DNA of 37,640 bases from a virus. The stretch lies in the UHGV virus genome UHGV-1707198; one strand, 5' to 3'. Below are positions 3,156 through 26,903 of this stretch, in pieces. Position numbers and translations under genes: made by a program. The notes beneath the pieces are model-generated. The model searched no databases. It was not told where the DNA came from and saw nothing but the letters and a program-made list of their open reading frames with translations. Positions within the stretch are counted from its first letter, which is position 1. Every line of letters starts with the position of its first letter.

Positions 3156-3945
3156 TAAAGCAATCCCTGAGCTTGGCTCTGACGTTATGCAGCAAATCTA
3201 TCTCTGCGCCATAAATCGCTACCCTAATGAAGCGTGTGGCTTTCTGGTTAGAACTAATGGCGACAAATATCGCTTTATGGAAGCGCGGAATGTTTCGGAG
3301 AACCCGCAGAACACTTTTGTAATGCACGTTGACGACATTATGGCGGCAGAGGATGCGGGTGATGTTATCGCAATCTGGCATTCACATACTGATGAATCAG
3401 CAGAAGCATCTTATGCCGATCGTGCAGGCTGCGAAGCGACGGAAGTTCCGTGGATGATTCTGGCTATTCGCAAGAATGTTGAGGGAGATGCCCCTTTCCA
3501 TTTTAGCGAGATGAATGTGATCACACCTGATGGTTTCGAAATGCCATACCTGGGCAGACCGTATGTATTTGGCGTATTTGATTGCTGGATGTTGTGTCGG
3601 GACTATTTGAAGCGTGAGTTTAACGTCGAACTAAACCCGAACGCACACCTGCATATTCCATCGTGGTACACCGGCGATAACGACATTCTCGATCAGAACT
3701 ACCGAAACGAAGGATTGGTACGGCTTGCGCCCGGAACAGAACCTCAACGTGGGGACGTCTTCTTTATCCAATACGGAAAAATGCCTGACCACTGTGCGGT
3801 TTATATCGGCGATGGAATGATTCTTCATCACCAGATCGACCGCCTTAGTTGTCGTGCTTATTACGGCGGGATGTATCAGAAACATACGACGCATCACTTG
3901 CGTCACAGAGACTTGCTCAAGGGAGATGAGACGTGTCTGAGTTAG
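3148..3945 (+). CDS. tail assembly protein, lambda gpK-like (JAMM/MPN plus NlpC/P60-type domains)
   Basis: Start overlaps the L stop (ATGGGTAATAA). Contains an HSHTD motif consistent with a JAMM metal site and a Cys-containing C-terminal hydrolase-like region; position matches lambda K. Confidence 0.7.
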   Translation: MGNKAIPELGSDVMQQIYLCAINRYPNEACGFLVRTNGDKYRFMEARNVSENPQNTFVMHVDDIMAAEDAGDVIAIWHSHTDESAEASYADRAGCEATEVPWMILAIRKNVEGDAPFHFSEMNVITPDGFEMPYLGRPYVFGVFDCWMLCRDYLKREFNVELNPNAHLHIPSWYTGDNDILDQNYRNEGLVRLAPGTEPQRGDVFFIQYGKMPDHCAVYIGDGMILHHQIDRLSCRAYYGGMYQKHTTHHLRHRDLLKGDETCLS

Positions 3946-4523
3946 TTCATGTGCAGCTTGGCGGCCCTATGGCCAAACATTTTGGCCGCCACTGGCATCT
4001 AAAGGTGCGTAATACAAAACAGGCTCTGGATTTAATTGAGGCCAACAAGCCTGGGTTTAAAGCATGGATGAAGCGCAATATCAAAACCTATGACAGATAC
4101 CACATCCAGATCACCAATAAACAGGGCCACAAGTGGTCTGTGGACGAGAGTGAATATCAGATGATGGGGCAGTCTGACAATATTGCAAAAATCCGCATTA
4201 CCCCTGTTCCGCGAGGAAGTGGTGGATCTGCTTTTGGATGGTTTCAGACGGTTGTTGGAGCAGTATTAATGGTTGCCTCGATATGGGTGCCCGCTCTTGC
4301 GCCTCTCGGTTTGTCACTGATGATGGGCGGTATAGCGCAAATCATATCTCCGCAAGCCACTAACGAAAGTGTGAGGCAGGCGGATAACTCGAACTCTTAT
4401 TACTTTGATGGACCTCAAAACACAACAAACCAGGGGAACCCTGTACAGCTTATCTATGGCGAGGAAATTTTAGTTGGCTCACAGGTCGTGAGTTCTTCTA
4501 TCACCATCGACCAGCTTATGTAA
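3933..4523 (+). CDS. tail assembly protein, lambda gpI-like
   Basis: 196 aa, GTG start overlapping the K stop; hydrophobic Gly-rich C-terminal half; called by position between K and J. Confidence 0.55.
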   Translation: MSELVHVQLGGPMAKHFGRHWHLKVRNTKQALDLIEANKPGFKAWMKRNIKTYDRYHIQITNKQGHKWSVDESEYQMMGQSDNIAKIRITPVPRGSGGSAFGWFQTVVGAVLMVASIWVPALAPLGLSLMMGGIAQIISPQATNESVRQADNSNSYYFDGPQNTTNQGNPVQLIYGEEILVGSQVVSSSITIDQLM

Positions 4524-4540
4524 TCAAGGATTTTTTGGAC

Positions 4541-7500
4541 ATGGAACAGTTCAAGAAGAAAAAATTACCGCTTCTTATTGCCGGTGCTGGTGGCAAGAAA
4601 AGTAAAAGCTCCAGCCGTACCCCGGTTGAAGCTGATGATACTGTCAATTCTCGTGCTATGGCAGCCATCCTCGACCTTCTTGGCGAGGGGGTTATCGGTG
4701 GCCTGGTAAATGGCGCAAAGTCGATCTTCATCGACGATTTACCGATCTTGAATGAAGATGGCTCTTCCAACTTCAGCGGTATTACATGGGATTTTCGTGA
4801 CGGCTCACAAGATCAGACGCCAATGGCTGGTTTTGATTTTGTCGAAACGCCTAAGTCCGTAAATATTCAGCTTAAAAAAACACACGACGTTACGGTTTCA
4901 ATCGATAACGATGAAGCTGATCGCGTTCGTGTCATCATGAAATTCCCCTCTTTACGTAGCGTTGATAAAAGCTCTGGCGATACAAATGGCACTACGGTGA
5001 AGTACAAATTCCAGATCGCCAACGCAGACGCAACATTTTCTGATGTAGTGGCAGAAGGTGAGAAAAGCGTTGATATCACGCTAACGGCAAAGAAAACCGG
5101 CGTGTATTACCGTAGCTATGAGCTGAAACTGCCTAAGCCTGGTCGTGCATACAAGGTTAGGGTGATTCGTCTTACAGATGATAATAGTAGCCAGTACCTC
5201 TACAACGACACATGGGTTGATTCCATCGGTGAGATTGTCGACACGCCAATGAACTACCCTAACTCTGCTCTTGTTGGCTTGAAGGTCAATTCAGAGCAGT
5301 TTGGTAGCACAATGCCTTCCCGTTCGTATTTGGTGCGCGGTATCAAAATCCGAGTACCGTCAAACTACAACGAATACACCAATACTTATGTCGGCGTATG
5401 GGACGGTACTTTTAAGCTGTTGTCTTCTTCAAACCCTGCGTGGATTCTCTACGATTTGCTTACCAATACTCGGTATGGTCTTGGGCAATTTGTGTCGGAA
5501 TCCATGATTGACCTCGGCCAGCTCTACCAGATTGGTCGATATTGTGACGAAGAGGTCGATGATGGCTTTGGGGGTAAAGAGAAACGCTTTGCAATCAATA
5601 CGCAGATCACCAGTCGACAAGACGCATACCGATTAATTCAGGATATTGCCGGTGCATTCCGCGGCATGGTGTTTTGGGCTGGTGGCATGGTTAACATCAT
5701 GCAGGATAGCCCATCAGATCCGGTAATGATGTTTACCAACTCCAACGTCAAAGATGGACTGTTTACCTATAAAGGTTCTGCGCGTAAAGATCGCCCATCC
5801 GTTGCGCTCGTAACCTACAACAACAAGGAGGACGGTTATAAGCAAAACATCGAGTACGTTGAAGATCAGGACGCAATGCGCCGTTATGGTGAGCGTAAAA
5901 CAGAAGTCGTAGCATTTGGATGTACAAGCCGAGGCCAGGCTCACCGAGTTGGTTTGTGGCTTTTGTATACCGCCAGAATGGAGTCGGATGTAATTACATT
6001 TACTGCCGGCTTAGACGCCTCATTTCTGATGCCCGGTGAAACCGTTCTGATTCAGAACAAATATCGTGCAGGTAAACGTAACTCCGGTCGAATTGTGGAG
6101 TTTACCAAAAACAGCATCACTCTCGATGCGCCTGTGTCGTTAGCTAAAAGCGGCAGCTTTATTCGGATATTGAATCAGGAAGGCAAAATCGTTGAACGCG
6201 ATGTTCTTGAAACTGGCGAAAACATAACAAAGGTTACGTTTTCAAAAGCCCTGTCGTCAGCGGAAACGCCTGTTTTGAACGGTGTCTGGACAATTACAGA
6301 ACCAGATCTCGAACCTATGCGCGTTCGCATCGTTAACATCGCGCAGGGGGAAACGCCGGGTAGCTTTGACATCACCGCTGTTGAGAACAATCCGTCTAAA
6401 TATGAGGCAATCGACAATGGTGCAACGCTGATCCCGCAGAATACGACGGTATTGGACCCAACTTACTCCAAGCCATCTAATCTGCAAATCACTGAAGGGA
6501 CTTATCTCTCAAGCCCGGGCAACCTGTCAGTAAAACTGACTGCAACATGGGAAGGAAAATCTCCAGAGTATTGGATCAGTTGGCGACGTTCTGATGAAAA
6601 CAATGTATCGAACTGGCAATCGGCGCGTGTAACCGAAGAGCAATACGAAATCGTTAATGTCGCGGAGAATGGACGCTACGACTTCCAACTGTATGCGGTT
6701 TCATTCAACGGTAAAAAAACAGAGATTATCAGTACCGTTTATCAGGTGTTGGGCACAATGACACCGCCGGATGCCCCAACGTCATTAACGGCCGTTGGAG
6801 ACTATCGTAATGTGATACTGAATTGGGTTAATCCAGATTCGGTAGACCTTGATCACATTAATGTTTACGCATCCCAGACCAACAATCTGGATACGGCGAA
6901 ACTGATCGCAGAGTCTGCAAGCACCACCTTTACACATGCTGGTCTTGGGGATAGCGAAACGTGGTATTACTGGGTTCGAGCATCGAACAAGCGAGGTATG
7001 TTAAGCCCTCCGAACTCAAACTTGGGTACAGAGGCGACAACTCGCGATGTACTGTCGTTCCTGGCTGGCAAAATTACATCTTCCGAGCTTGGTCAGGCTC
7101 TGCTTGAGGACATCAACAGCAAAGCCTCTCAAGAAGCAGTTGACGAGTTAAATGAGCATATCAACCAGAGCGTCGAATCTTTGGAGGGGTCGGTAAACGA
7201 CGTTAAGGAAGATATAGCTGAATTAGATAAGCAGTTCAGCGATAACCTCGCGGGTTTTGAAATAAAATTCAACGAGCGTAGCGATGCTTTGGAGAACGCA
7301 CAAACCGAGCTTAAAGGTGAGGTTTCGGCAACGATCGACAAGGTCAATGAAGCGTTTGAAAAAATTGATGCTACTGATGCTGCAATTGTTGAAATCGAAA
7401 ACACCGTATCTGAACACGATAAAGCTCTCGCTAATACAGTCGAGGCAATAAAGGCTGCAAGAGATGAAGCGGCGGCTCTTATTGCTAAGGAAAGCGAGGC

Positions 7501-9265
7501 TCGTGTTGAAGGCGATGCTGCAAACGCTAAACAACTGGAAGTGTTGCAGTCAACGGTAGAGGAAAGCTCCGCTGCCGTTGAAGAAATGAAAAAGACGGTT
7601 GCAGAGGTCGATCGTGCCAGTGCAGAACTGACTACGAACATTGAGGCGTTAGCCAAAACAAATATTGACCTGGCTCTTCGTCAAGATGAAGACCAGCACA
7701 AGCAGATGGTCAATAACGCGAAGATCGCAACAACACAGAAAACCTTTGCTGATGATATGTCTGCAATGGCCACGAAGGTTGAGGAAATTCGCGTAGAAAT
7801 TGGCGAAGACATTAAGGCCAGTATTCTGGAAGAGTCCACCGCTCGTGCCGATGGCGATGAAGCGTTGGCAAAGCGTGTCACTCAGCTGCAATCTAAGTTT
7901 GAAGGAGATATCAGCGCGGCGATTAGTACAGAGCAGGAGGCTCGCACATCTGCCGATGAAGCTCTGACGACACAGATCACTCAGCTTGAGTCGAAAGTAA
8001 GCAACGATATCGTCGCAGCTATTAAGGAAGAGCAAGAAGCCCGAGCAACGGAAGATTCGGCTCTGGCAAGCCAGATCACCCAACTTCAGGCAAAGGTTGA
8101 TGATGATATTTCTGCTGCAATACGTAGTGAGCAGGAGGCCCGAGCAAGCGGGGACTCTGCGTTAGCCAAACAAATAAACCAGCTTCAGTCAAAGGTTGAC
8201 GGTGATATATCCGCTGCCATCACTCAGGAGCAGGAGGCCAGAGCAAGTGCTGACCAGGCGCTCTCACGAGAAATTAACAGCCTGCGAGCACAAACCGGAA
8301 CTGATATTGCCGCAGCGGTTGCTGTAGAGACAAAGGCAAGGACTGATGCCGATAGTGCATTGTCCACTCAGATTTCGTCTCTTACAGCAAAAGCTAATGA
8401 TCTCGAGGCATCTCTTGCCAGAGAAACAACGGCTCGTGCTGATGGTGATACCGCTTTAACAAAAGAGGTTTCAAGTTTAAAAGCACAGACAGCGAAAGAT
8501 ATTAGTGCGGCCGTTGCAGTTGAAACGCAGGCTCGAACTGATGCTGACTCGGCGTTGTCGTCTCAGATCACCAAGCTGACCTCTCAATACAAAGAGGATA
8601 TTAAAGCGGCTGTAGCAACCGAAACGAAAACGCGTACAGAGCAAGATGCTGCATTGGCGACTCAAATCACAAACTTAGAGTCTCAAACGGCAGCCAACAT
8701 TTCCGCGGCGGTAACAACTGAAACGACAGCGAGAACGCAGGCAGATAATGCTCTGAGTGGGCGAATCGATACTCTGAAAGCAGAGGTGGATGGAAATACC
8801 GCGACAATTCAACAGCAGGCAACAGCTATTGCTGATACCAACAAAAAAGTGTCAACCGCGTGGACGTTGAAAATGGAAACTTCAACGAGCGGAGGGCAGA
8901 AGTATGTTGCTGGTATTGCGCTTGGTATCGACACCACTGGCCTTTCTCAGTTTTTGGTGCAGGCTGACAGGTTTGGTTTGGTCAACTCTGTTAACGGGAA
9001 GATCACCACGCCATTTGTTATCGAAAACAGTATCGCCTATATGAATGGTGCGTATATCAAGGATGGCACAATCACCAATGCAAAAGTAGGCGATCTGCAA
9101 TCTACCAATTTTGTTAGCGGTAGATCTGGATGGCGGTTCGGCAAAAATGGAACGCTTGAGATCAACGGTAATAGCGGGGGTAATGGGCGACTGGTCATAA
9201 ATGGTCAGCGGATTGACGTTTATGACGATAACAACGTCCTACGAGTAAGAATTGGCCTTCTGTAA
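4541..9265 (+). CDS. host specificity / central tail fibre protein, lambda gpJ-like, with extended C-terminal repeat shaft
   Basis: About 1574 aa from the ATG at 4541 (ORF track begins at TTG 4535); AAGGA ribosome-binding site upstream; large N-terminal region typical of J-family tip proteins; follows the I homologue. C-terminal third is tandem repeats. Confidence 0.85.
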   Translation: MEQFKKKKLPLLIAGAGGKKSKSSSRTPVEADDTVNSRAMAAILDLLGEGVIGGLVNGAKSIFIDDLPILNEDGSSNFSGITWDFRDGSQDQTPMAGFDFVETPKSVNIQLKKTHDVTVSIDNDEADRVRVIMKFPSLRSVDKSSGDTNGTTVKYKFQIANADATFSDVVAEGEKSVDITLTAKKTGVYYRSYELKLPKPGRAYKVRVIRLTDDNSSQYLYNDTWVDSIGEIVDTPMNYPNSALVGLKVNSEQFGSTMPSRSYLVRGIKIRVPSNYNEYTNTYVGVWDGTFKLLSSSNPAWILYDLLTNTRYGLGQFVSESMIDLGQLYQIGRYCDEEVDDGFGGKEKRFAINTQITSRQDAYRLIQDIAGAFRGMVFWAGGMVNIMQDSPSDPVMMFTNSNVKDGLFTYKGSARKDRPSVALVTYNNKEDGYKQNIEYVEDQDAMRRYGERKTEVVAFGCTSRGQAHRVGLWLLYTARMESDVITFTAGLDASFLMPGETVLIQNKYRAGKRNSGRIVEFTKNSITLDAPVSLAKSGSFIRILNQEGKIVERDVLETGENITKVTFSKALSSAETPVLNGVWTITEPDLEPMRVRIVNIAQGETPGSFDITAVENNPSKYEAIDNGATLIPQNTTVLDPTYSKPSNLQITEGTYLSSPGNLSVKLTATWEGKSPEYWISWRRSDENNVSNWQSARVTEEQYEIVNVAENGRYDFQLYAVSFNGKKTEIISTVYQVLGTMTPPDAPTSLTAVGDYRNVILNWVNPDSVDLDHINVYASQTNNLDTAKLIAESASTTFTHAGLGDSETWYYWVRASNKRGMLSPPNSNLGTEATTRDVLSFLAGKITSSELGQALLEDINSKASQEAVDELNEHINQSVESLEGSVNDVKEDIAELDKQFSDNLAGFEIKFNERSDALENAQTELKGEVSATIDKVNEAFEKIDATDAAIVEIENTVSEHDKALANTVEAIKAARDEAAALIAKESEARVEGDAANAKQLEVLQSTVEESSAAVEEMKKTVAEVDRASAELTTNIEALAKTNIDLALRQDEDQHKQMVNNAKIATTQKTFADDMSAMATKVEEIRVEIGEDIKASILEESTARADGDEALAKRVTQLQSKFEGDISAAISTEQEARTSADEALTTQITQLESKVSNDIVAAIKEEQEARATEDSALASQITQLQAKVDDDISAAIRSEQEARASGDSALAKQINQLQSKVDGDISAAITQEQEARASADQALSREINSLRAQTGTDIAAAVAVETKARTDADSALSTQISSLTAKANDLEASLARETTARADGDTALTKEVSSLKAQTAKDISAAVAVETQARTDADSALSSQITKLTSQYKEDIKAAVATETKTRTEQDAALATQITNLESQTAANISAAVTTETTARTQADNALSGRIDTLKAEVDGNTATIQQQATAIADTNKKVSTAWTLKMETSTSGGQKYVAGIALGIDTTGLSQFLVQADRFGLVNSVNGKITTPFVIENSIAYMNGAYIKDGTITNAKVGDLQSTNFVSGRSGWRFGKNGTLEINGNSGGNGRLVINGQRIDVYDDNNVLRVRIGLL
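7823..8800 (+). repeat. about ten tandem 99-bp (33-aa) repeats inside the J-like gene
   Basis: Repeating protein unit of the form ISAAIxxEQEARAxxDxALxxQITQLQSKVxxD, read directly from the translation; heptad-like, suggesting a coiled-coil shaft. Confidence 0.75.
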
Positions 9266-9357: not shown

Positions 9358-12300
9358 ATGTGGTACAGGGAAGGTACTATCACATTTACACAGGGCAGCA
9401 ATACTCTGGTTGGGGCAGGGACAGCCTGGAACGTAACAGCTAATGGTGTGTTGCCGGGGATGATCGTCATTGGCCCCGACAATAAGCTGTATGAGATCAA
9501 GCGCGTAACCAGTGATACGAACATTGTTCTCTCAGAACCCTATACCGGCGAAACTCAGTCTGAAGTTCCGTGCCGAATCATTACGACCTATGAAGGCGAC
9601 TTAACACAGTTTAGCGCGCGCTTTACAGCACTAATGTCGCGTATGTCGGCTGATTCCAAGTCCATGCGCAGTTGGTTGACTGCTCTGGATGAGGTGACAA
9701 TCGAGCGTGAAGACGGTACAGAAGTGACCGTTAAGCCGCTAATGCAGATCGTCAACGAGCACAACGAAAACGTTGAGTGGTATAAAAATAACACTGACGC
9801 GATTGATGCTGCTGGCGACAAAGCTCGTGAGGCGGCGGCCAGTGCTGCCGCAGCAGCAGAAAGCGCCAATACCGCTGGAGAAAAAGCCTCTCAAGCGTCT
9901 CAAAGTGCATCCGCTGCAGAGTCCTCAAAAAGCGCGGCGGCCACCAGTGCCGGTGCCGCGAAAACGTCTGAAACGAATGCTGCAGCGTCACAAAAATCTG
10001 CAGCCACTTCTGCATCCACCGCGACCACGAAGGCGTCAGAAGCTGCCACCTCAGCCCGGGATGCGGCGGCCTCAAAAGAGGCAGCGAAATCATCAGAAAC
10101 GAGCGCAGCCTCGAGCGCCAGTAATGCCGCTTCCTCGGCAACGGCGGCAGGAAATTCCGCGAAGGCGGCAAAAACGTCCGAGACGAACGCCAGGTCTTCT
10201 GAAACGGCAGCGGGACAGAGCGCCTCGGCTGCGGCAGGCTCAAAAACAGCGGCTGCGTCGTCTGCCAGTGCCGCGTCAACAAGTGCCGGGCAGGCCTCAG
10301 CCAGTGCCACCGCCGCCGGAAAATCGGCAGAAAGTGCCGCATCATCTGCTTCAACAGCCACAACGAAGGCTGGCGAAGCCACTGAACAGGCCAGCGCAGC
10401 AGCGAGGTCTGCTTCCGCAGCGAAGACATCCGAAACGAACGCGAAAGCGTCGGAAACCCGTGCAGAATCCTCAAAAACGGCAGCCGCATCGTCCGCCAGT
10501 TCGGCAGCGTCATCGGCATCATCTGCGTCTGCTTCAAAAGATGAGGCGACCAGACAGGCGTCAGCAGCGAAGGGCAGCGCCACGACGGCATCCACGAAAG
10601 CAACAGAGGCGGCAGGCAGTGCGACGGCAGCATCTCAGAGCAAAACTGCTGCTGAATCCGCTGCGACCCGTGCGGAAGCTGCTGCTGATCGTGCTGAAGA
10701 GATTGCCGGTGCAGTTGCGATGGAAGACGCAAGCCTTACAACTAAAGGTGTTGTGAAACTTAGCAGTGCTGTCGACAGCACCAGTGAATCGCTGGCCGCA
10801 ACGCCAAAAGCAGTTAAAGTAGTCAATGACAATGCGAACAGCAGGGTGCCATCTAACCGAAAAATTAACGGGAAAGCACTGACTGCGGATATCACATTAA
10901 CGCCGAAAGATATTGGTACTTTAAATTCAATAACGATGTCTTTCTCTGGCGGGGCCGGGTGGTTCAAACTGGCTACTGTTACAATGCCACAAGCGAGTTC
11001 CATCGTTTACATCGCATTGATTGGTGGCGCTGGTTACAACGTCGGCTCCCCACATCAGGCAGGCATTTCAGAACTGGTTCTACGAGCAGGCAATGGAAAC
11101 CCCAAAGGGATTACAGGTGCTTTGTGGAAGCGTACAGCTGTCGGATTAACGAATTTCGCCTGGATCAACACATCCGGCGATACATATGATATTTACGTTG
11201 AAATTGGCAATTATGCGACGAGTGTAAATATCCATTGGGATTGTACTGCAAATGCGTCAGTTTCTGTTTATACATCGCCAACATATTCAGCGAGTAAGCC
11301 TTCCAGCGTTACCGATGGTGTTGTTTATACGATGTATAGCACACATCAGAAACCGACGCCGTTAGATATTGGAGCACTGCCAACAACCGGAGGAACAGTT
11401 TCAGGTCCGTTGTCTGTTACTGGTGGGATCACCGGAACATTAAATGGTAATGCAAGTACAGCAACGAAATTGCAGACGGCAAGATCTATCGGTGGAGTTG
11501 GTTTCGACGGTTCTGCAAATATCAACCTTCCAGGTGTAAACACTACGGGTAATCAGAACACCACTGGTAATGCTGCAACTGCTACAAAACTTCAGACTGC
11601 AAGAAAAATATCCGGTGTTCCATTTGATGGTTCTACTGATATCACTTTAACCGCTGCGCATGTTGCCGCTTTCGCAAGAAGGGCAACAGGGTCATATGCG
11701 GATGCTGATGGTGGCGTGCCGTGGAATGCTGAATCTGGTGCTTACAATGTAACTAGAACAGGCGACAGTTATATTCTTGCCAACTTTTATACCGGTGTAG
11801 GTAGTTGCCGTACGCTTCAAATTAAAGCTCACTATAAAAATGGTGGTCTGTTCTACCGTTCCTCAAGAGATGGCTATGGTTTTGAAAGTGGTTGGGAGCA
11901 GGTTTACACGACTGGATTTATGCCTCAGCCGGCTGATATAAACGCACCAACCGCTGCCGCTGGATGGTTAAATAGTGGTAACGGAACGGCATTTACGACT
12001 GCTCAATTTATAACTTGGCTAAACAATCAGGGGGCATTTACAAACAAACATTGGATCGCACGGTGCTCATGGACTTACGCCAACAATAATTATATAGACG
12101 ACACTGGTTGCGGTAGGATCGATCTATCTGGTTCCGTGATTGAGGTGTTTAGTAATAAGGCAACAAGCCACTACACTATTCGTGTTACAACGACAACAAC
12201 ATCAGGTCATGGTGGTGTTAATAATGCGGAATTTATTTATGTGTACAATGGGAGTGATTATGCGCCAGGCTGGCGTCGTTCTTATAACACTAGAAACAAA

Positions 12301-13656
12301 CCAACAGCTTCTGATGTAGGAGCATTACCGCTTTCAGGTGGCACATTATCTGGAGGGTTGACGTCTTCTGGTGAGATCGTTTCAAAATATGCAAATGGTT
12401 TCCGCATTGCTTACGGTAACTACGGGTTCTTTATCCGTAATGACGGCGGCAGCACATATTTCATGCTAACAGCATCAGGAGATACGTTAGGTTCATGGAA
12501 CAGTTTGCGACCGATTATAATTAATAATAGCAGCGGTGTTGTGTCTATTGGTAATGGACTAAATGTTACTGGTGGCGTAAATGGTAGCTTGAATGGCAAT
12601 GCTTCAACAGCTACGAAGTTGCAAACAGCGAGAAACATCAATGGTGTTAAGTTTGATGGTTCAGGTGATATCAATATTAATACATTGGTTTCTCGTGGTC
12701 GAGTTACGGCTTTAAGCGGTTCTACTCAAGGTACTGCTGGCATTCAAATGTACGAGGCGTACAACAATAGCTACCCGACCACGTATGGCAACGTATTGCA
12801 CATGAAAGGTGCGAGTGCTGCTGGTGAGGGCGAGTTGCTTATTGGCTGGAGTGGTACGAGCGGTGCACATGCGCCGGTTTTCATTCGCTCCAGAAGAGAT
12901 ACCACTGATGCGGCATGGTCAGCGTGGGCGCAGGTATATACCGCTAAGGATTCAATCCCTGGTGTGAATACAACCGGTAATCAGAATACTACTGGTAATG
13001 CCGCAACAGCCACAAAATTGCAGACAGCAAGGAAAATTGCTGGTGTGGCGTTTGATGGCTCTGCCGATATTACTTTGACTGCGGCTAACCTTAATGCTTA
13101 TACGAAAACAGAGGTAACAAACCTTCTAAGTTCCTATGCAAGCAGATCATCACTGACAGGCTATAGTGGCAACCTGGATATTATTGCTGAAACACTGGTT
13201 GTCAAATCAGGCGGTAGTGGAGGGTTTGCTATATGGGATATTGGCACAACTACTAGCGGTGCCAATATGTACATTGATCCAAACCCAGGTATCAATACAG
13301 TTTGGCGTTCAACATCTTCAAGGCGCTATAAAAAGGATATTGAAACATTACAAGATCGATATGCTGATGAACTTTTGTCATTAAGACCTGTTTGGTATCG
13401 TTCAATTTGTCGAGGTGACCGAAAGGATTGGGGGTATTACGGCCTTATTGCTGAAGAGGTTGGTGAGATTGCCCCGCAATATGTCCATTGGCGTGAACCA
13501 ACAAATAATGATTCTCCAGGAGATATTTCCTCAAATGGTATGGTCGCTGAAGGAGTGATGTATGAGCGTTTGGTTGTACCACTCATTCATCATATTCAGC
13601 AATTGACCAAAAGGGTTGAGGAGCTTGAAACGAAGTTAAATTCACCTAAAGAATAA
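9358..13656 (+). CDS. side tail fibre protein with C-terminal S74-type intramolecular chaperone domain
   Basis: 1432 aa; GGAG ribosome-binding site. Ala/Ser/Thr-rich degenerate repeats (KTSETNA, SASAA) at residues about 160-460, like lambdoid Stf-type fibres as I recall them. Repeated GNASTATKLQTARxIxGVxFDGSxDI fibre motifs. C-terminus (DIETLQDRY...GLIAEEVGEIAPQYVHW) resembles the self-cleaving chaperone of T5 pb1 and endosialidase-type fibres. Confidence 0.8.
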   Translation: MWYREGTITFTQGSNTLVGAGTAWNVTANGVLPGMIVIGPDNKLYEIKRVTSDTNIVLSEPYTGETQSEVPCRIITTYEGDLTQFSARFTALMSRMSADSKSMRSWLTALDEVTIEREDGTEVTVKPLMQIVNEHNENVEWYKNNTDAIDAAGDKAREAAASAAAAAESANTAGEKASQASQSASAAESSKSAAATSAGAAKTSETNAAASQKSAATSASTATTKASEAATSARDAAASKEAAKSSETSAASSASNAASSATAAGNSAKAAKTSETNARSSETAAGQSASAAAGSKTAAASSASAASTSAGQASASATAAGKSAESAASSASTATTKAGEATEQASAAARSASAAKTSETNAKASETRAESSKTAAASSASSAASSASSASASKDEATRQASAAKGSATTASTKATEAAGSATAASQSKTAAESAATRAEAAADRAEEIAGAVAMEDASLTTKGVVKLSSAVDSTSESLAATPKAVKVVNDNANSRVPSNRKINGKALTADITLTPKDIGTLNSITMSFSGGAGWFKLATVTMPQASSIVYIALIGGAGYNVGSPHQAGISELVLRAGNGNPKGITGALWKRTAVGLTNFAWINTSGDTYDIYVEIGNYATSVNIHWDCTANASVSVYTSPTYSASKPSSVTDGVVYTMYSTHQKPTPLDIGALPTTGGTVSGPLSVTGGITGTLNGNASTATKLQTARSIGGVGFDGSANINLPGVNTTGNQNTTGNAATATKLQTARKISGVPFDGSTDITLTAAHVAAFARRATGSYADADGGVPWNAESGAYNVTRTGDSYILANFYTGVGSCRTLQIKAHYKNGGLFYRSSRDGYGFESGWEQVYTTGFMPQPADINAPTAAAGWLNSGNGTAFTTAQFITWLNNQGAFTNKHWIARCSWTYANNNYIDDTGCGRIDLSGSVIEVFSNKATSHYTIRVTTTTTSGHGGVNNAEFIYVYNGSDYAPGWRRSYNTRNKPTASDVGALPLSGGTLSGGLTSSGEIVSKYANGFRIAYGNYGFFIRNDGGSTYFMLTASGDTLGSWNSLRPIIINNSSGVVSIGNGLNVTGGVNGSLNGNASTATKLQTARNINGVKFDGSGDININTLVSRGRVTALSGSTQGTAGIQMYEAYNNSYPTTYGNVLHMKGASAAGEGELLIGWSGTSGAHAPVFIRSRRDTTDAAWSAWAQVYTAKDSIPGVNTTGNQNTTGNAATATKLQTARKIAGVAFDGSADITLTAANLNAYTKTEVTNLLSSYASRSSLTGYSGNLDIIAETLVVKSGGSGGFAIWDIGTTTSGANMYIDPNPGINTVWRSTSSRRYKKDIETLQDRYADELLSLRPVWYRSICRGDRKDWGYYGLIAEEVGEIAPQYVHWREPTNNDSPGDISSNGMVAEGVMYERLVVPLIHHIQQLTKRVEELETKLNSPKE
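11532..11660 (+). repeat. intragenic direct repeat copy A (fibre motif block)
   Basis: About 130 bp at roughly 80% identity to 12961..13090; both encode GVNTTGNQNTTGNAATATKLQTARKI(S/A)GV(P/A)FDGS. Confidence 0.7.
12961..13090 (+). repeat. intragenic direct repeat copy B (fibre motif block)
   Basis: Partner of 11532..11660; a third, shorter related copy lies at about 12590..12690. Confidence 0.7.
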
Positions 13657-13671
13657 ACAACTTCAATCGGG

Positions 13672-13697
13672 GCTGGAACTAAACCAGCCCCTGCTTA
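13672..13697 (+). terminator. putative rho-independent terminator after the tail fibre gene
   Basis: GGGGCTGG-aactaaa-CCAGCCCC hairpin followed by a T/A-rich run. Confidence 0.45.
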
Positions 13698-13716
13698 AAA
13701 GTATAAGGATATATTT

Positions 13717-13971
13717 ATGAGCTATGGTGCACAGGTTTGGTCGCCATCAAGACAGGAGATGGTCGATGCGTTGGCCCCTGTTTATTACCTCGATTATTTT
13801 ACTCCCTCTGGTTCAGGAAGTAGAACATATGAGGTTGAGGCGGGATTGGGAATCGACTATTACATAATGGACGTAACCAATGGAAAATACACAAGTCTTA
13901 CGGTTTCTGGAAATACCATTTCGTGGTCTGGAGCTAGTGGTAATTTAAACATATTGGTTTTTCAAAAATAA
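13717..13971 (+). CDS. hypothetical protein
   Basis: 84-aa ORF; its stop overlaps the next start (TAATG), implying translational coupling. Confidence 0.35.
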   Translation: MSYGAQVWSPSRQEMVDALAPVYYLDYFTPSGSGSRTYEVEAGLGIDYYIMDVTNGKYTSLTVSGNTISWSGASGNLNILVFQK

Positions 13972-14579
13972 TGTACGGAAGCAAGATATATCGATCTGAC
14001 GGGAAGGTCTGGATGTCTCCTTCTTTGTCTCCTATCGTTTTTCAGAGAAAGCAGGTTGTTTCTTTGTCCGGCGGGACAGAGTTTAACACCCAAATATCTC
14101 CAGATCGTTCACCGATGATTTTTGTTGCCTATTCGAAAGCTGTTTCATTAATAGCCAACAGAATAGTGCGTAACAACCAGGTGATTTACAGTTTCGGAGG
14201 TCAGGGTAGCGACTCTAGTGCCACGATATACGTATTTTCGAAAGGTATAGCCAAAAAAGAAACTTGGGGCATGAGTTTTTTCAATGCGCGAGGAGAGGAG
14301 ATCTATAATACGGCAAATATCCCACTTTCATTTACCTTTCTTAATAATACGGAGTGGAACAGTTCTGGAGGGCATGTTTTTGATTACCCGCCAGCGATAA
14401 TCCCAACATATGCAAATGTGTTCGCGGTTCCAGTACCGGGCGGGGCCATGACAATGGTTTATGGATATGCGGCATATGGAAATACTGTTAGCTCTATATT
14501 CGTAAACCAACTTAATGGCGGCCATAGTTTTAGTGTAAATGGCAGAGTACCGGTAATAAATAGAAATCTGTATAACTGA
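13971..14579 (+). CDS. hypothetical protein
   Basis: 202-aa ORF coupled to the upstream small ORF; lower GC than the tail genes; no motif recognised. Confidence 0.4.
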   Translation: MYGSKIYRSDGKVWMSPSLSPIVFQRKQVVSLSGGTEFNTQISPDRSPMIFVAYSKAVSLIANRIVRNNQVIYSFGGQGSDSSATIYVFSKGIAKKETWGMSFFNARGEEIYNTANIPLSFTFLNNTEWNSSGGHVFDYPPAIIPTYANVFAVPVPGGAMTMVYGYAAYGNTVSSIFVNQLNGGHSFSVNGRVPVINRNLYN

Positions 14580-14589
14580 TGAGTAAACG

Positions 14590-14820
14590 ATGAAAAGATT
14601 ATTTCTAACAATAGCTGTTGTTCTCTCTCTTACTGGCTGCCAGAAATTGCCGACACCTATATGTTATGGTGAGGCTATCATTGGTGGACAGGAGACAGTC
14701 ATACCCATATATGCTGTTAAAAAAGTGAACGACTATACCTTATACAAAGCGGGTAGCATCTATAACTGGCGATGGGTTGGAGTAGGTGCTTTCTCATCAG
14801 TCCGTTGCAATGCTGAATGA
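14590..14820 (+). CDS. small lipoprotein (signal peptide plus lipobox LTGC)
   Basis: N-terminus MKRLFLTIAVVLSLTGC has a basic n-region, hydrophobic core and a lipobox cysteine; 76 aa. Confidence 0.55.
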   Translation: MKRLFLTIAVVLSLTGCQKLPTPICYGEAIIGGQETVIPIYAVKKVNDYTLYKAGSIYNWRWVGVGAFSSVRCNAE

Positions 14821-14889: not shown

Positions 14890-15225
14890 ATGGAGGAAAA
14901 TATGTCGAACGAGATGGCGGGCGTTACAACAGAGCAAGTTGAGCGTATTGCCGCGATCGTTGCTCGGGAGGTTGTTGGTAAATTAGGTAAAGAGCTACGT
15001 GAAGAAATTGGCCAAGAGGTCAATGATCAGCTGAAAACCTACTTTGGTGATATGACCCCGGCGCAACATAGTATTCAACACTCCAATCTGGACAAACTCC
15101 TTAACCGGTTAGATTCCATCTCCAGTGGGTTCTTTGGCGGCATTGTTTCTAAAATAACGTCGTTCATTATTACTGCACTGCTTTTGGGGTTAGCCGCGTA
15201 TGGCGTAAAAAATGGACTGCAATAA
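14890..15225 (+). CDS. putative holin-like membrane protein (single C-terminal transmembrane helix)
   Basis: 111 aa with a C-terminal hydrophobic helix (ITSFIITALLLGLAAYGV); called holin only by position directly upstream of the putative endolysin and spanins. Topology is atypical for a holin. Confidence 0.3.
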   Translation: MEENMSNEMAGVTTEQVERIAAIVAREVVGKLGKELREEIGQEVNDQLKTYFGDMTPAQHSIQHSNLDKLLNRLDSISSGFFGGIVSKITSFIITALLLGLAAYGVKNGLQ

Positions 15226-15238
15226 CAGGAGATCAAGG

Positions 15239-15931
15239 ATGAAGACTCCGAGAGGCATTCGTAATAATAACCCCGGTAATCTTGATAAAGGATCACCGTG
15301 GCAAGGTCTGGTTGCGAATCCAGACGAACCGCGCTTTTGCACGTTTAAAGACCCTGTTTGGGGGATTCGTGCGCTGGCGGTGACTCTAATTACCTACCAC
15401 GACAAACGTCGCGCAAAAGACGGCTCAAGTATCGATACCATTCGTGAAGTTATTGAACGTTGGGCACCGCCGAATGAAAACAACACTGACGCCTACATTA
15501 ATGAGGTGTCTAAAGCCGTTGGTGTAACCGCAGACATGATCATCGATCTGCATGATTACGACATCCTTCGACCTTTGGTTGAGGCAATCATTCGCCATGA
15601 GAATGGGCGAGGTCCGCTAAAAACGCTGAACACCTGGTATGCGGCAGAAGTTATTGAGGAAGGTCTGCGTCGAGCTGGCGTCGTTAAGCCGGTGAAAACC
15701 GTGAAGGCTGTTCCTGTAACTAAAGAAACCGCAGGCGCAACTGTTACAGCAGGTATTGGTCTGGCACAGCTGGCCGATGTTATGCCACAGGTTTCCGCTG
15801 CTATGGATAAAGCACAAGGTCATATCTCTAGCGGGGATACAGTACGCATCATCTTCGGTATTGCCACTATTGTTGTGGCAGGATTCATTGCCTGGTCGCA
15901 GGTAAGAAAACACCAGAAAGGGATGGTCTAA
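15239..15931 (+). CDS. putative endolysin / cell-wall hydrolase with C-terminal membrane anchor
   Basis: AGGAG ribosome-binding site before the ATG at 15239. Sits between the holin-like gene and the spanins. GIRNNNPGN motif near the N-terminus, which I associate with a phage cell-wall hydrolase family but cannot verify here; C-terminal hydrophobic helix IIFGIATIVVAGFIAW. Confidence 0.4.
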   Translation: MKTPRGIRNNNPGNLDKGSPWQGLVANPDEPRFCTFKDPVWGIRALAVTLITYHDKRRAKDGSSIDTIREVIERWAPPNENNTDAYINEVSKAVGVTADMIIDLHDYDILRPLVEAIIRHENGRGPLKTLNTWYAAEVIEEGLRRAGVVKPVKTVKAVPVTKETAGATVTAGIGLAQLADVMPQVSAAMDKAQGHISSGDTVRIIFGIATIVVAGFIAWSQVRKHQKGMV

Positions 15932-15932
15932 T

Positions 15933-16184
15933 ATGCTAGGCAGCCTGATGACAAAGCTAAAAGTTGCTTTGATTACGCTGGCTGCCGTTCTTTTCGTTCT
16001 GGTCGGCGCTTACACGATGGGCGGGAATGCGGCGCGACGAGCAATGGAAGAGAAGGCAAAACAGGAAGACAGAAAACGACTTCAAAGCACAGTGGATGTC
16101 AAAAATGAAACGGTTAATGAAGTGCGACAAAAAGATGCCTCTGGTGTTCATCGCGAGCTGTTTGATAAATGGGTGCGTGATTAA
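15933..16184 (+). CDS. putative i-spanin (Rz-like)
   Basis: 83 aa; N-terminal transmembrane helix then a charged helical region; starts 1 nt after the endolysin stop. Confidence 0.5.
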   Translation: MLGSLMTKLKVALITLAAVLFVLVGAYTMGGNAARRAMEEKAKQEDRKRLQSTVDVKNETVNEVRQKDASGVHRELFDKWVRD

Positions 16185-16341
16185 GACGCAGGCTCCAGGC
16201 GTGCTATTCTGCGATGCTGCAAATCCTATCTATGTGAGTAGAGAGGATTTTATGACTGAGGAAACGGAGCGACAGTTGCTTATCCACAATACGATAGGTG
16301 AAAGGCTGTGTGAGTGGGGGGCACCTGAACTGAGTCGATGA
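16105..16341 (+). CDS. putative o-spanin lipoprotein (Rz1-like), overlapping the i-spanin in another frame
   Basis: Alternative-frame ORF overlapping the 3' end of the i-spanin gene and extending past it; signal peptide with lipobox FIASC or LINGC; start codon chosen by eye. Confidence 0.45.
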   Translation: MKRLMKCDKKMPLVFIASCLINGCVIKTQAPGVLFCDAANPIYVSREDFMTEETERQLLIHNTIGERLCEWGAPELSR

Positions 16342-18937: not shown

Positions 18938-18955
18938 ATTAAAGGATTGATACTA

Positions 18956-20650
18956 ATGGAATCGATAGAATCATTTCTAAAAAATTTTCTAGTTTCAGAT
19001 CATCGGGTTGCCGTCATAAAAGGAGATTGGGGCGTTGGTAAAACTCATTATTGGAATAGTTTTTATACTAAGCATTCTGAAGGATTAGATTTTAATGCAT
19101 ATTCGTATGTTTCTTTGTTTGGGGTTAACTCTATTGGTGATATTAAAAAAACTCTTTATCATTGTGCCACACCAATTAATGAAAAGAAATATAAAGAACT
19201 AATTTTATCTGAAACGGATCGAACTATGATTCGTTATAGAAATGGGTTTTGGGGATGGTTGAAATACAACTCCTTGTCAAAATTTTTAATACATTTCGGA
19301 AAGATCGATTTTTTTGGGTTCAAAACAGATAACCTGCTGTCATCTCTTGAGTATAAATTTGTTAATAATTATTTGGTTTGTATTGATGATGTTGAAAGAA
19401 AAGGTAATTCGCTAGAAGTTAAAGAAATTATGGGGGTAATTGATGAATTAGCAAGAAGAAAAGGTTGCAAAGTTGTTCTAATTTTAAATGAAGATAATTT
19501 ACATGATGAAACTGCAAAAAAACAGTTTTTAGAGTACAGAGAAAAAGTAATTGATGTCGAAATAAAATACGATCCTACGCCTGAGAAGAACTTACGTAAA
19601 GTTTTTTATGAAACTGATTCTGATTTTCTTTTGTTAAAAGTCTTAGCAAATGACTTAGGCATTAAAAATATCCGTATATTAAATAAAATAAAAACATCTC
19701 TGGTTAATCTTAGGAATGAGCTAAGCTTGGCAGAGGATAAGGTTAGAGAAAGCTTTATCAATAGATTGGTTCTGTTTTCAGTGGTTTACTATTCTGGTGT
19801 TCCAGGTGTTGATTATGCCTTGTTTAAAGAATCAATTAAAAACATACATGTATTTGATTACATGTTAGATGATAAAAAGGATGATTCTGTATATTCATTT
19901 ATTAATAGTCTTGATGTTATTTATGAACGAGCGGAAATTGCTTTCGATGATGACATAGATTTTTATCTCAAGAATGGTTATCTTTCTACTGAAAGCAATA
20001 TTCGAGGTATAATAGAAGAAAAAAATAAACAATATAAAGAACACAAGGCTTTATGTGATGTTAACAATGTTTGGGATATTTTTAGTGACTCATTCAAGGA
20101 CAATGAATCTGAGTTTATTTCTAAGATAAAATGTGTAATTAACGACAATCTTTCACACATACCTGTTGCTCACTTCATAGGCTTGATTGATATCTTAAAT
20201 AGATTGGAGATTGATTGTGATAGTTATATAGAGGCATATGCAGATGCCTTTGTTAGCCAAGATGATGCTTATACTGCTTTTCGGAATTTGTATGTAGAGA
20301 TATTTGGTAACGAAAAGTTAGGTCTGCTAATTCAAAAAAAATTGATGGATAAGAAGCCTGAAGAGACTAATTTAGAGAATGTTTTATACAAAATAATTGA
20401 AGGCAAATTTAATCATAGTGACATAGCATATCTTAACAGTTTCTCTGAAGATGATTATTTAAAGTGGATATTATCCCGCAATCAGGATGCTTTGGATTTA
20501 GTGAGAAAGGGGTTGCTCAGATTCAAAAGTATGCAAGAACTAACAGAAGAACAGCAAAAAATCACGAATAAAGCAATAGGTGCATTAACGAAACTGGCCT
20601 CTAGATCAAGTCTTAACAAACTACGTGTGAGCAGATTGCTTAATAATTAA
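18956..20650 (+). CDS. KAP-family-like P-loop NTPase
   Basis: About 565 aa from the ATG at 18956 (AAGGA ribosome-binding site 9 nt upstream). Walker A GDWGVGKT fits the G-x-W-G-x-GKT KAP signature; Walker B-like LVCIDDVER about 110 residues later. Strongly AT-rich and Lys/Asn/Ile-rich, unlike neighbouring genes. Confidence 0.55.
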   Translation: MESIESFLKNFLVSDHRVAVIKGDWGVGKTHYWNSFYTKHSEGLDFNAYSYVSLFGVNSIGDIKKTLYHCATPINEKKYKELILSETDRTMIRYRNGFWGWLKYNSLSKFLIHFGKIDFFGFKTDNLLSSLEYKFVNNYLVCIDDVERKGNSLEVKEIMGVIDELARRKGCKVVLILNEDNLHDETAKKQFLEYREKVIDVEIKYDPTPEKNLRKVFYETDSDFLLLKVLANDLGIKNIRILNKIKTSLVNLRNELSLAEDKVRESFINRLVLFSVVYYSGVPGVDYALFKESIKNIHVFDYMLDDKKDDSVYSFINSLDVIYERAEIAFDDDIDFYLKNGYLSTESNIRGIIEEKNKQYKEHKALCDVNNVWDIFSDSFKDNESEFISKIKCVINDNLSHIPVAHFIGLIDILNRLEIDCDSYIEAYADAFVSQDDAYTAFRNLYVEIFGNEKLGLLIQKKLMDKKPEETNLENVLYKIIEGKFNHSDIAYLNSFSEDDYLKWILSRNQDALDLVRKGLLRFKSMQELTEEQQKITNKAIGALTKLASRSSLNKLRVSRLLNN

Positions 20651-21614: not shown

Positions 21615-22955
21615 ATGACCGAACTTTGCCATACAGGACGCGGGCTGTCCGAAGAGTTTGATGAAGATTTCCAGAACAGACTGACGGCATATTTTTGTCG
21701 TGATCACGAGTTTCTTACTCGTGCGGGAGATCTGGTTGTGCCTAGCCAATTTGCCAATGCGGCCAATGCCATATTGGTTAATATGGTTTCGGGCTATTAC
21801 CGTATGTACAAGAGCGCGCCCTCTTCATCTGCAATTCTGGATATGCTTAAGCGTGCGAAACGCGATAAGACTATCCGTGAGGAACTATTCGCCGATGTTG
21901 TTGCTGCGTTTAAGCGCATTCTTGCAGAAAAATTGTCCGATACCTCGTACATGGTTGACCAGGTATCAACCTTCGCAAAAAGTGTAGCGTTTGATGATGC
22001 TCTGATTAAGGCTGCTGAACTGAAAGAGAAAGGCGACTTTCAGGGGGCGATGGCAATCATGGCCAAGGTTCAGCAGATTGGATCGAACGAAGCGACCGGA
22101 ATCTATGACTACTACACCTCCGCAAGTGAGCGATTGAAAGCGCGTGAATATGAGGCTTCAGAGGAGTATGTACCAAACAGTATTACAAGTGGACTCCCTC
22201 TTCTCGATAGGTTGCTGTACCAAAAAGGCTGGGCAAAGCGCGAAATGGTGCTCTTCATGGGGTTCGCTAAATCCGGTAAATCGACCGCAATGGGTGAGTT
22301 TTCCATAAACGCAACACTTGCTGGCTACAATGTTCTGTATCTCTCGCTGGAGGTTCACACCACCATTTTATCCGACCGTTTTGATGCAAGATTGTCGGAG
22401 ACAGAAATGTCCAAGCTGGTGGAACGGCGCGATGAGGTTCATCGTAAGTTGGCAGAGTTGGGAGCCACAAAGGGGATTGGTAGTTTGTGGGTGGTTGAGC
22501 GTCCGTCAGGAAGTATGTCACCGGCAGATCTGGACCGTATGCTTAACAGCATGAAAGCCAACGGCATGGTACCTGACATGGTTGTTGTCGACTACGCAGA
22601 TTTGATGCGTGCCAGTTATGACCTTCGTGATGATCGCGCCAACATTCGTAGTATCTACACCGATTTACGTGCTCTTTATGACAAGCATAACGTTGCTGGG
22701 ATCACGGCATCGCAGACAAACCGTGAAGGTGGCGCGTCAGAAGTTGCCACAATGATGCACGCTGCCGACAACATCGAAAAAGTACGTATTGCTGACCTGG
22801 TAATAACGATCAACAAAACCGAAGAAGAAGAAGCGAAAGGAGAGGCTCGTCTCTACTTTGCTGGTTCACGTAACCAGCAGGGAGGGATCAGCATTCGCGT
22901 TAAACAAAACCTCGAACAAATGCGCTTCATTGAGCGAATCTTAGACGTTACCTAA
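21615..22955 (+). CDS. DnaB-like replicative helicase
   Basis: 446 aa; Walker A GFAKSGKST in the C-terminal half and Walker B-like VVVDYADLM, the arrangement of DnaB/RepA-type helicase cores. Confidence 0.55.
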   Translation: MTELCHTGRGLSEEFDEDFQNRLTAYFCRDHEFLTRAGDLVVPSQFANAANAILVNMVSGYYRMYKSAPSSSAILDMLKRAKRDKTIREELFADVVAAFKRILAEKLSDTSYMVDQVSTFAKSVAFDDALIKAAELKEKGDFQGAMAIMAKVQQIGSNEATGIYDYYTSASERLKAREYEASEEYVPNSITSGLPLLDRLLYQKGWAKREMVLFMGFAKSGKSTAMGEFSINATLAGYNVLYLSLEVHTTILSDRFDARLSETEMSKLVERRDEVHRKLAELGATKGIGSLWVVERPSGSMSPADLDRMLNSMKANGMVPDMVVVDYADLMRASYDLRDDRANIRSIYTDLRALYDKHNVAGITASQTNREGGASEVATMMHAADNIEKVRIADLVITINKTEEEEAKGEARLYFAGSRNQQGGISIRVKQNLEQMRFIERILDVT

Positions 22956-26126: not shown

Positions 26127-26903
26127 ATGAAAGACGAAATTCAGAAATTGGCCTGTGACATCATTGATAAAACAGGTTTAGAAATCAGCGAGGGCAGTCG
26201 ACTAGACATCATTGGAAAGGCCGTCAATACAGCAATGAATCATATCGCTGCTCGTATGGACGAGATCCCGCTACCAGGGTTGCCTTATCTGAAAGTTGAG
26301 TTACACGTATGGGGCGAACCTTCTTGTGCACGGCGTTCTGCATTAGTTGTTTTTATTAGCAAAGAAAACCCGCTCAGTCTTAAAGTGCAGGTTGGAGCAT
26401 GGCTTGATGGCAGAGTGATCTACACAAATACCGTTTTTTGTCTTTCAAACGACGAAACTATTGAAGCGGCCATTCAAGAAGCAGTTCTAGCAATGCGCAG
26501 CAGCGGTTTGATGAAGAATAACTACGAAGAGTACTTGCGTTCGATAAGTGGTGAAAAGACATTATCTCTGAAAGCAGATTTCGTTACCCCGAAAAATCTG
26601 TTGGAAGTTTTGATTAATAAAGGGGCTAATAGTGCCGTAAATGTAATCAGAGAGAGTGAATACGCGTCTCTTTGGGATATGTGCAAAAGCCAGTTGGATC
26701 TTGTGCATATCGTTGTTGATGCGGGGAAGGCTTGTGATGGCGTAATGGCGGAATTTGCTGGGAAGATGGTCAGGATTGCTAACGAATTACCGATGATTAA
26801 GCAAGAGGCTAAATCATACGCCACCAATCATGTCACAGAGCTTCTTGCCCCTTATCGCTTAGAAAGCGATCAGCGCAAGATGATTAGCTGGGGAAGTTGG
26901 TAA
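26127..26903 (+). CDS. hypothetical protein
   Basis: 258-aa ORF with AGGAG ribosome-binding site; no motif recognised. Confidence 0.45.
   Translation: MKDEIQKLACDIIDKTGLEISEGSRLDIIGKAVNTAMNHIAARMDEIPLPGLPYLKVELHVWGEPSCARRSALVVFISKENPLSLKVQVGAWLDGRVIYTNTVFCLSNDETIEAAIQEAVLAMRSSGLMKNNYEEYLRSISGEKTLSLKADFVTPKNLLEVLINKGANSAVNVIRESEYASLWDMCKSQLDLVHIVVDAGKACDGVMAEFAGKMVRIANELPMIKQEAKSYATNHVTELLAPYRLESDQRKMISWGSW

Follow-up and report, generated by a model that had tools for sequence, protein, structure and literature searches.

Cassettes containing the lipoprotein Cor have been known since the genome papers on phages phi80, N15 and T1. In these three phages a small gene, a big gene and cor come after the gene for the central tail-tip protein J, and Salmonella phage SSU5 carries a triad orthologous to the one described here. 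In BASEL phages, the alleles of a locus beside gpJ track the terminal receptor (Maffei et al., PMC8594841), and a preprint (10.64898/2026.04.02.716166) likewise reports alleles beside gpJ that track FhuA, BtuB, LptD and YncD; both studies regard the products of the locus as receptor-binding proteins (RBPs) and their cognate exclusion lipoproteins. For the RBP of phage Oekolampad (Bas18), whose gene also lies beside gpJ, receptor binding was shown by cryo-EM and resistance mutants (bioRxiv 10.1101/2025.07.07.663478). Modelling with AlphaFold-Multimer by Matusiak et al. (PMC12309495) puts small Ig-like and ‘hand-like’ proteins on the J tip, and the KanT1 paper (PMC13164509), which found no fold match for the two proteins, proposes that in T1-like phages they assist exclusion. 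For the Cor of KanT1, a relative of T1, a predicted periplasmic interface with FhuA is reported at ipTM > 0.8. SSU5, so far as it is cited in PMC12312913, is reported to use the LPS core via its gp22 adhesin.

The stretch of DNA analysed here (37,640 nucleotides in its entirety, referred to as the window) comes from an SSU5-like phage-plasmid of E. coli. The region is 99.7% identical to the E. coli plasmid pECOH89 and is likewise matched by dozens of similar non-mobilisable plasmids of about 110 kb; a ParA gene comes after the lysis genes, in the order found in SSU5. Downstream of the tail genes lie three small genes that probably constitute a host-recognition and receptor-masking cassette of the T1/N15/phi80 gp22-gp23-cor type. 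The features of this neighbourhood are as follows.

4535..9265, plus strand: J-like central tail-tip protein, 1576 aa (lambda_TipJ, E 5.5e-159)
9358..13656, plus strand: lateral tail fibre, 1432 aa (Pfam Gp34_trimer 1.8e-29, Peptidase_S74 5.5e-6)
13669..13691, plus strand: G+C-rich hairpin, GGGGCTGG / CCAGCCCC, with a 7-nt loop (-17.8 kcal/mol, z -4.0 against shuffles)
13717..13971, plus strand: 84-aa gene (phrog_557, N15 gp22 / T1 gp32 family)
13971..14579, plus strand: 202-aa gene (phrog_425, N15 gp23 / T1 gp31 family)
14590..14820, plus strand: cor, 76-aa lipoprotein gene (NF047972, phrog_1119)
14890..16341, plus strand: lysis cassette (PHROG matches), made up of the next four features
14890-15225, plus strand: holin-like gene (phrog_5093, function unnamed; SSU5 and Cyrano homologues annotated holin)
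15212-15931, plus strand: endolysin (phrog_873; SSU5 and Cyrano homologues annotated endolysin)
15933-16184, plus strand: Rz (PHROG spanin; SSU5 and Cyrano homologues annotated Rz)
Embedded in 16027-16341, plus strand: Rz1 (PHROG spanin; the spanin matches of the cassette are phrog_1026 and phrog_1275)

A preliminary description of this DNA had noted three small genes between the tail fibre and the lysis genes, the first two of them coupled, and both observations stand: the coordinates are exact, all three genes are on the plus strand, the 84-aa and 202-aa genes overlap by 1 nt (TAATG), and cor starts 10 nt past the stop of the 202-aa gene. Its remark that the stretch is lower in G+C also holds, although the gap is modest, at about 6 points below the flanks (0.42 for the triad, compared with 0.475 for J, 0.488 for the fibre, 0.483 for the lysis genes and 0.448 for the window). 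As judged from sequence, these are real genes and not chance open reading frames, since the family matches are strong (PHROG E values of 1e-24, 5e-49 and 2e-30) and the block is kept in 126 plasmids. No paralogue of the 84-aa, 202-aa or cor gene was found elsewhere in the window.

The upstream hairpin, with an 8-bp G+C stem and no U-run, lies between the stop codon of the fibre gene and the 84-aa gene; it may serve to attenuate transcription or to make the RNA more stable, and in T1 the corresponding sites around gp32/gp31 carry annotated terminators. Directly 3′ of cor, the hairpin in the window is not significant (z -1.2 against shuffles), whereas SSU5 has a perfect inverted repeat at this place. 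A consensus promoter/terminator scan, which returned fewer sites than shuffled sequence, gave no promoter of its own for cor; the 10-nt gap that separates cor from the preceding gene is too short to hold one, in contrast to N15 and phi80, where the corresponding gap of about 110 nt is long enough.

The third product had been described as a lipoprotein whose similarity to Llp or Cor was not established, with a profile comparison against both suggested as a check. That it is a lipoprotein is borne out: a hydrophobic N-terminus forms a lipoprotein signal peptide (residues 1-16) followed by the lipobox L-T-G-C17, with lipidated Cys17 and Gln at +2 (MKRLFLTIAVVLSLTG-C17-QK), and Pfam LPAM_1 matches with E 0.0065 and 17.3 bits, under its curated cut-off of 20. 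Its relation to Cor has in the meantime become clear. The protein scores 80.7 bits with the NCBIfam equivalog NF047972 (lamb_exclu_cor, phage exclusion lipoprotein Cor), which has a curated cut-off of 31 bits and gives 134.5 for N15 Cor and 55.8 for T1 Cor, while the lipoprotein of the BtuB phage FritzSarasin (Bas04) fails at 18 bits; the match with phrog_1119 (Cor superinfection exclusion protein) has an E value of 2.2e-30. Identity is 59% to SSU5_025, its orthologue, which is annotated Cor-like in GenBank, 58% to Cor of the Stx phage phi367, 42% to N15 and phi80 Cor and 28% to T1 Cor, and C17, C25, G33, F68 and C73 are invariant in the alignment of all of these. By the measure of these sequence comparisons, the 76-aa lipoprotein is a member of the Cor superinfection-exclusion family. 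In lipoprotein sorting by the Lol rule, the residue at +2 governs the destination and Asp at this position avoids the outer membrane; since +2 is Gln in this Cor, the outer membrane is the expected location. Cys25 and Cys73 presumably form a disulphide in the mature domain of about 60 aa.

The comparison with T5 Llp turned out marginal. The Cor-family profile matches Llp (8a60_B) with E 0.0097 over residues 1-42, mostly signal peptide and the first Cys, in agreement with the identity of about 20% given by van den Berg et al. (PMC9586334); in the PDB this was the only match of the family profile, and the single-sequence search gave none. Although PLSDB tables list nothing at the cor position in E. 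coli plasmids, current RefSeq already gives the name cor to the same ORF in plasmids that are nearly identical at the DNA level (98-99.6%).

The other two proteins are found in families of their own. The 84-aa protein matches phrog_557 (E 1.3e-24, residues 1-78) and the 202-aa protein matches phrog_425 (E 5.5e-49, residues 1-201), and these two families, which occur beside J in virulent as well as temperate phages, contain N15 gp22/gp23, phi80 gp22/gp23 and T1 gp32/gp31, which align with the pair over their full length. Neither protein has a signal peptide, a lipobox, or a transmembrane or hydrophobic segment, neither matches Pfam or NCBIfam, and PDB sequence searches with the single proteins and with family profiles returned no homologue. 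The PHROG labels ‘outer membrane protein’ (phrog_557) and ‘membrane associated protein’ (phrog_425) are misnomers; even the proven Oekolampad RBP is listed as ‘membrane protein’ in PHROGs (phrog_1265), so such labels mean little. The 84-aa protein is modelled as a six-stranded beta-sandwich (pLDDT 85.5) and the 202-aa protein as an all-beta structure of moderate confidence (pLDDT 69, pTM 0.70), and the predicted fold of the latter matches the experimentally shown Oekolampad RBP (PDB 9rpt chain C). CYRAN_89, a homologue of the 202-aa protein, matches both phrog_425 (2e-70) and the Oekolampad RBP family phrog_1265 (1.9e-6). The 202-aa protein itself has no phrog_1265 match, PDB profile searches and hhalign of family alignments between it and the Oekolampad RBP were not significant, and CYRAN_89 was negative against that RBP by BLASTP. 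With no significant sequence comparison, it is the fold match and a single PHROG cross-hit that link the 202-aa protein to Oekolampad.

The small and big proteins have in common an N-terminal motif, [W/Y]G-x3-[I/V/W/Y]-x2-4-G...P, which is repeated in the big protein at residues 99-111, and the Oekolampad RBP starts with a similar string. Because the first 20 or so residues of the 202-aa model are of low confidence and the first 25 residues of the Oekolampad RBP are unresolved in its complex (bioRxiv 10.1101/2025.07.07.663478), we infer that the N-terminus serves the pair proteins as a docking segment. The presumed docking site is the PF09327 Phage_Tail_Tip domain of J (residues 1424-1558 by Pfam), and the C-terminal 200 or so residues of J are homologous to those of the N15, T1, phi80 and Bas04 (FritzSarasin) J proteins, all from pair-bearing phages. 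Over its last 800 residues, J is 99.5% identical to Cyrano J, whereas the pairs of the two elements are only about 26-34% identical, which speaks against simple co-variation of J and the pair; with the same J tip and differing pairs, docking would need a short conserved N-terminal segment. The 84-aa and 202-aa proteins are likely to be tail-tip receptor-binding proteins, with the 84-aa protein probably a soluble small subunit or adaptor of the receptor-binding module. The literature searched contained no report that gp22/gp23-type proteins are associated with the virion.

The distribution of the three genes bears on how tightly they belong together. The triad is present in 126 plasmids, 73 from Escherichia at an identity of at least 95% and 53, from Enterobacter, Citrobacter, Salmonella and Kluyvera, with the SSU5-type allele at about 68%; a protein search with Cor found homologues in 72-73 Escherichia plasmids. 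Among 5,426 complete E. coli genomes, 68 carry the triad, always on plasmids. Cyrano lacks the triad between its fibre and holin genes, and the block in which it differs consists of the last 170 or so residues of the fibre together with the triad. Its own pair, CYRAN_88/89, is another allele (26-34% identical), situated about 55 kb away among early genes and without a lipoprotein, as an insertion of about 1 kb relative to pECOH89, which is empty there. A tblastn search with CYRAN_89 returned 245 plasmids, about 122 with the Cyrano allele and about 123 with the triad allele, in nearly all of them at one place per record; each element therefore carries either the Cyrano pair or the triad pair, and Cor accompanies the triad allele only. 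In Stx phages, most have the pair and few have Cor, Cor-like proteins occur in T5-like phages that lack the pair (PMC13164509), and a Klebsiella relative has neither pair nor Cor and instead encodes a 4046-aa fibre/J protein. Because either can occur alone in plasmids, Stx phages or T5-like phages, the pair and Cor are separable, and the pair behaves as an exchangeable, one-per-genome component.

Gene structure, family membership, the presence or absence of export signals, predicted fold and distribution were analysed directly; for function, we infer the following course of events. The 84-aa and 202-aa soluble proteins would presumably be produced alongside the tail genes, and the 202-aa protein, perhaps aided by the 84-aa protein acting as adaptor, would bind an outer-membrane protein as terminal receptor and so trigger DNA ejection. 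By analogy with characterised Cor proteins and T5 Llp, Cor would bind the periplasmic face of the same receptor and render it unusable. A carrier or infected cell would thus exclude phages that use this receptor, and progeny would be spared loss on cell debris.

Two other readings of the pair have to be weighed against this one. In the first, which PMC13164509 takes for T1-like phages, the 84-aa and 202-aa proteins would be envelope-associated helpers that form an exclusion system jointly with Cor; all three genes point the same way and follow one another closely, the first two sharing 1 nt and cor beginning 10 nt further on, and the same cassette stands beside Cor in the FhuA phages T1, N15 and phi80. 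However, neither a lipobox nor a transmembrane segment nor a signal peptide is present in the pair proteins, about 120 plasmids and most Stx phages have homologous pairs but no Cor, T5-like phages have Cor-like lipoproteins without the pair (PMC13164509), and the predicted fold of the 202-aa protein matches that of a demonstrated RBP. No experimental basis was found for the membrane annotations, a kind of label that the proven Oekolampad RBP carries as well. It is the fold match and the distribution data that lead us to prefer receptor binding to a helper role, and joint exclusion seems improbable. The preliminary description had suggested an exclusion locus of three genes; this proved apt for the lipoprotein, which is Cor, and probably does not extend to the 84-aa and 202-aa genes, given their lack of export signals and the pairs without Cor. 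The second reading makes the two proteins assembly chaperones or distal adhesins of the upstream lateral fibre and not partners of J, a view that draws on the position of the pair directly behind the fibre gene and not behind J, and on the exchange block relative to Cyrano, which joins the C-terminal 170 or so residues of the fibre with the triad. Against it, the fibre has an intramolecular chaperone of its own in its C-terminal Peptidase_S74 domain, the orthologous triad of SSU5 stands behind a different fibre and a separate adhesin, the pair comes after J and not after a side fibre in T1, N15 and phi80, and Cyrano-type plasmids have it about 55 kb from the tail genes; we consider this reading very improbable.

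If the pair is a tail-tip receptor-binding module, as we favour, its receptor is most likely one of the TonB-dependent transporters. FhuA would be the best guess, with a chance somewhat short of even, because the lipoprotein passes the Cor equivalog model; this assignment is drawn solely from Cor, since the identity of the pair to its FhuA-type counterparts in N15, T1 and phi80 is no more than 23-28%. It is also quite possible, if short of likely, that the cassette works as proposed but that the receptor bound and masked is some outer-membrane protein other than FhuA, for instance another transporter of the TonB-dependent kind. The FhuA-associated RBP family of the Drexlerviridae and their relatives is quoted at more than 30% identity over nearly the full length (10.64898/2026.04.02.716166), and the pair falls outside it, since the 202-aa protein is 23% identical to N15 gp23 over 144 aa and 21% to phi80 gp23 and has only a local match with T1 gp31. 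The nearest characterised relative of the pair is found in the BtuB phage FritzSarasin (Bas04) at 28.6%, slightly closer than N15, distant Cor-like lipoproteins serve BtuB phages, and the closest Cor outside SSU5 (58%) belongs to Stx phages whose pair is of the Cyrano/Stx type. The reported use of the LPS core by SSU5 also weighs against FhuA. On the other hand, the Cor of the window is well over the equivalog cut-off and above the FhuA-directed Cor of T1, the BtuB-type lipoprotein fails NF047972, and, as far as the literature cited in PMC9586334 and PMC13164509 goes, the Cor proteins whose target has been tested all act on FhuA. A more far-reaching view, which we regard as rather unlikely, is that the pair is a split, two-chain form of a single-chain Oekolampad-type RBP that combines a new, non-FhuA specificity with a canonical Cor. 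The pair would then be a free-standing, exchangeable host-range unit that can lie far from the tail genes, present either as this allele with Cor beside the fibre or as a Cyrano/Stx-type allele without Cor about 55 kb away, and never as both.

The cassette is an ordinary one, already known and already annotated, and its value as a discovery is small given that RefSeq already names the ORF cor. Its use lies rather in annotation, since the ‘hypothetical’ or ‘membrane’ proteins encoded upstream of cor in about 70 E. coli phage-plasmids, and likewise in SSU5, make better sense as tail-tip RBPs. From the proposed function one would predict that strains with such a plasmid, which make up about 1% of complete E. 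coli genomes, may be resistant to phages dependent on the receptor in question, perhaps FhuA, and that host range within this family of phage-plasmids may be exchanged in small blocks.

Among known systems, T5 offers the same principle in pb5 and Llp, where next to the RBP gene lies that of a lipoprotein by which FhuA is inactivated from its periplasmic face (PMC9586334), although pb5 is not among the fold or sequence matches of the pair and Llp is only marginally similar to Cor. In Oekolampad, the RBP gene adjoins a small exclusion lipoprotein gene as the pair here adjoins cor; its RBP is a single 321-aa chain that binds LptD, in contrast to the two chains of 84 and 202 aa, and its lipoprotein (Rtp45-type) belongs to another family, phrog_4281. 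The closest counterpart is the orthologous triad SSU5_023-025, which keeps the gene order and likewise lies between tail fibre genes and holin gene, with protein identities of 69%, 75% and 59% and a DNA identity of only about 68%; in SSU5 the fibre is a different one, and a gp38-like adhesin encoded separately (SSU5_022) precedes the triad. N15 gp22/gp23, T1 gp32/gp31 and phi80 gp22/gp23 share with the window full-length homology of the pair, a coupled small-then-big order, cor after it and a PF09327 J tip. Their pairs are longer (100 and 225 aa, compared with 84 and 202 aa), only 23-28% identical to the pair of the window and placed directly after gpJ, whereas here the 4.3-kb gene of the 1432-aa lateral fibre stands between J and the triad; cor is downstream of the pair on the same strand in N15 and phi80, and convergent on the opposite strand in T1. 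With the Cor proteins of phi80, N15, HK022, mEp167 and T1, the lipoprotein of the window shares a size of about 76 aa, the lipobox, two cysteines and a place at the end of a gp22-gp23 pair. What distinguishes it from these other Cor phages is that it is paired with a divergent upstream allele and carried on a phage-plasmid of about 110 kb.

In a comparison of the two loci, the window differs from the phage-plasmid Cyrano over ~13140-14819 (~6140-6648 in the Cyrano locus extract L002), and the differing block takes in the C-terminal ~170 amino acids of the lateral tail fibre, S74 chaperone included, together with the entire triad, that is, the genes for the 84-aa and 202-aa proteins (the small/big pair) and for the exclusion lipoprotein Cor. 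Homology restarts exactly at the stop codon of cor, and thus the fibre tip and the triad appear to have been exchanged together as a single host-range block.

In Cyrano-type plasmids the pair is present as a different allele, CYRAN_88/89 (3717-4615 in Cyrano extract L006), which forms a ~1-kb insertion amid early genes, with a 189-aa ORF on one side, a DUF4942 gene on the other and no lipoprotein of any sort. The corresponding site in pECOH89-type plasmids is no more than a 142-bp gap (~22060-22202 in pECOH89 extract L007), and the two pair arrangements were mutually exclusive among ~245 plasmids.

The 202-aa counterpart in Salmonella phage SSU5, SSU5_024 (NC_018843 26610-27218; 6255-6863 in SSU5 extract L001), looks too short as annotated in RefSeq, which places its start at 26652; the homologous start lies 14 codons upstream, at 26610, and produces a 1-nt overlap with SSU5_023, as in the window. 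In one plasmid that is otherwise identical, NZ_CP145681.1, an IS2 interrupts the gene for the 202-aa protein at about window position 14205; such a natural knockout could show whether infectivity depends on this gene.

In the J protein (window 4535-9265), Ala/Glu/Ser/Thr-rich repeats span several hundred residues (~1000 to ~1370) and separate the lambda-J-like body from the tip domain. The N-terminal part of the fibre (window 9358-13656) is a long Ala/Ser-rich, low-complexity stretch that produces a 63% G+C peak at window 10001-10500.

Two low-GC islands each hold a further ORF, the second with a recombinase gene next to it:

18947-20650, + strand, 567-aa ORF, KAP-family P-loop NTPase (Pfam, 1.4e-5)
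31196-32458, - strand, 420-aa ORF in the second low-GC island (~32%)
33089-34192, + strand, tyrosine integrase/recombinase gene adjoining the 420-aa ORF

The 567-aa ORF, in a 30% G+C island just past ParA, matches the candidate defence system PDC-S49 in PADLOC (1.3e-21) and probably serves the phage-plasmid as an anti-phage moron; the sole PADLOC match of the 420-aa ORF is faint and PtuB-like (9e-4).

Side-fibre adhesins may be further travelling partners of Cor: SSU5 encodes a gp38-like "tail fiber adhesin" (L001 5421-5957) that is 50% identical to one in Stx phage phi367 (L005 6428-7213), in which Cor comes directly after the adhesin, unaccompanied by the pair. Small lipoproteins of the BtuB phage FritzSarasin (L003 4451-4720) and the LptD phage Oekolampad (L010 21622-21843) match the Cor profile phrog_1119 faintly (1.1e-7 and 6.5e-4, respectively). 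The lipobox is common to both of them and Cor, and the two Cor cysteines recur in the FritzSarasin protein, hinting that Cor and the BtuB-type and LptD-type proteins belong to a single, very diverged superfamily of lipoproteins that mask receptors.
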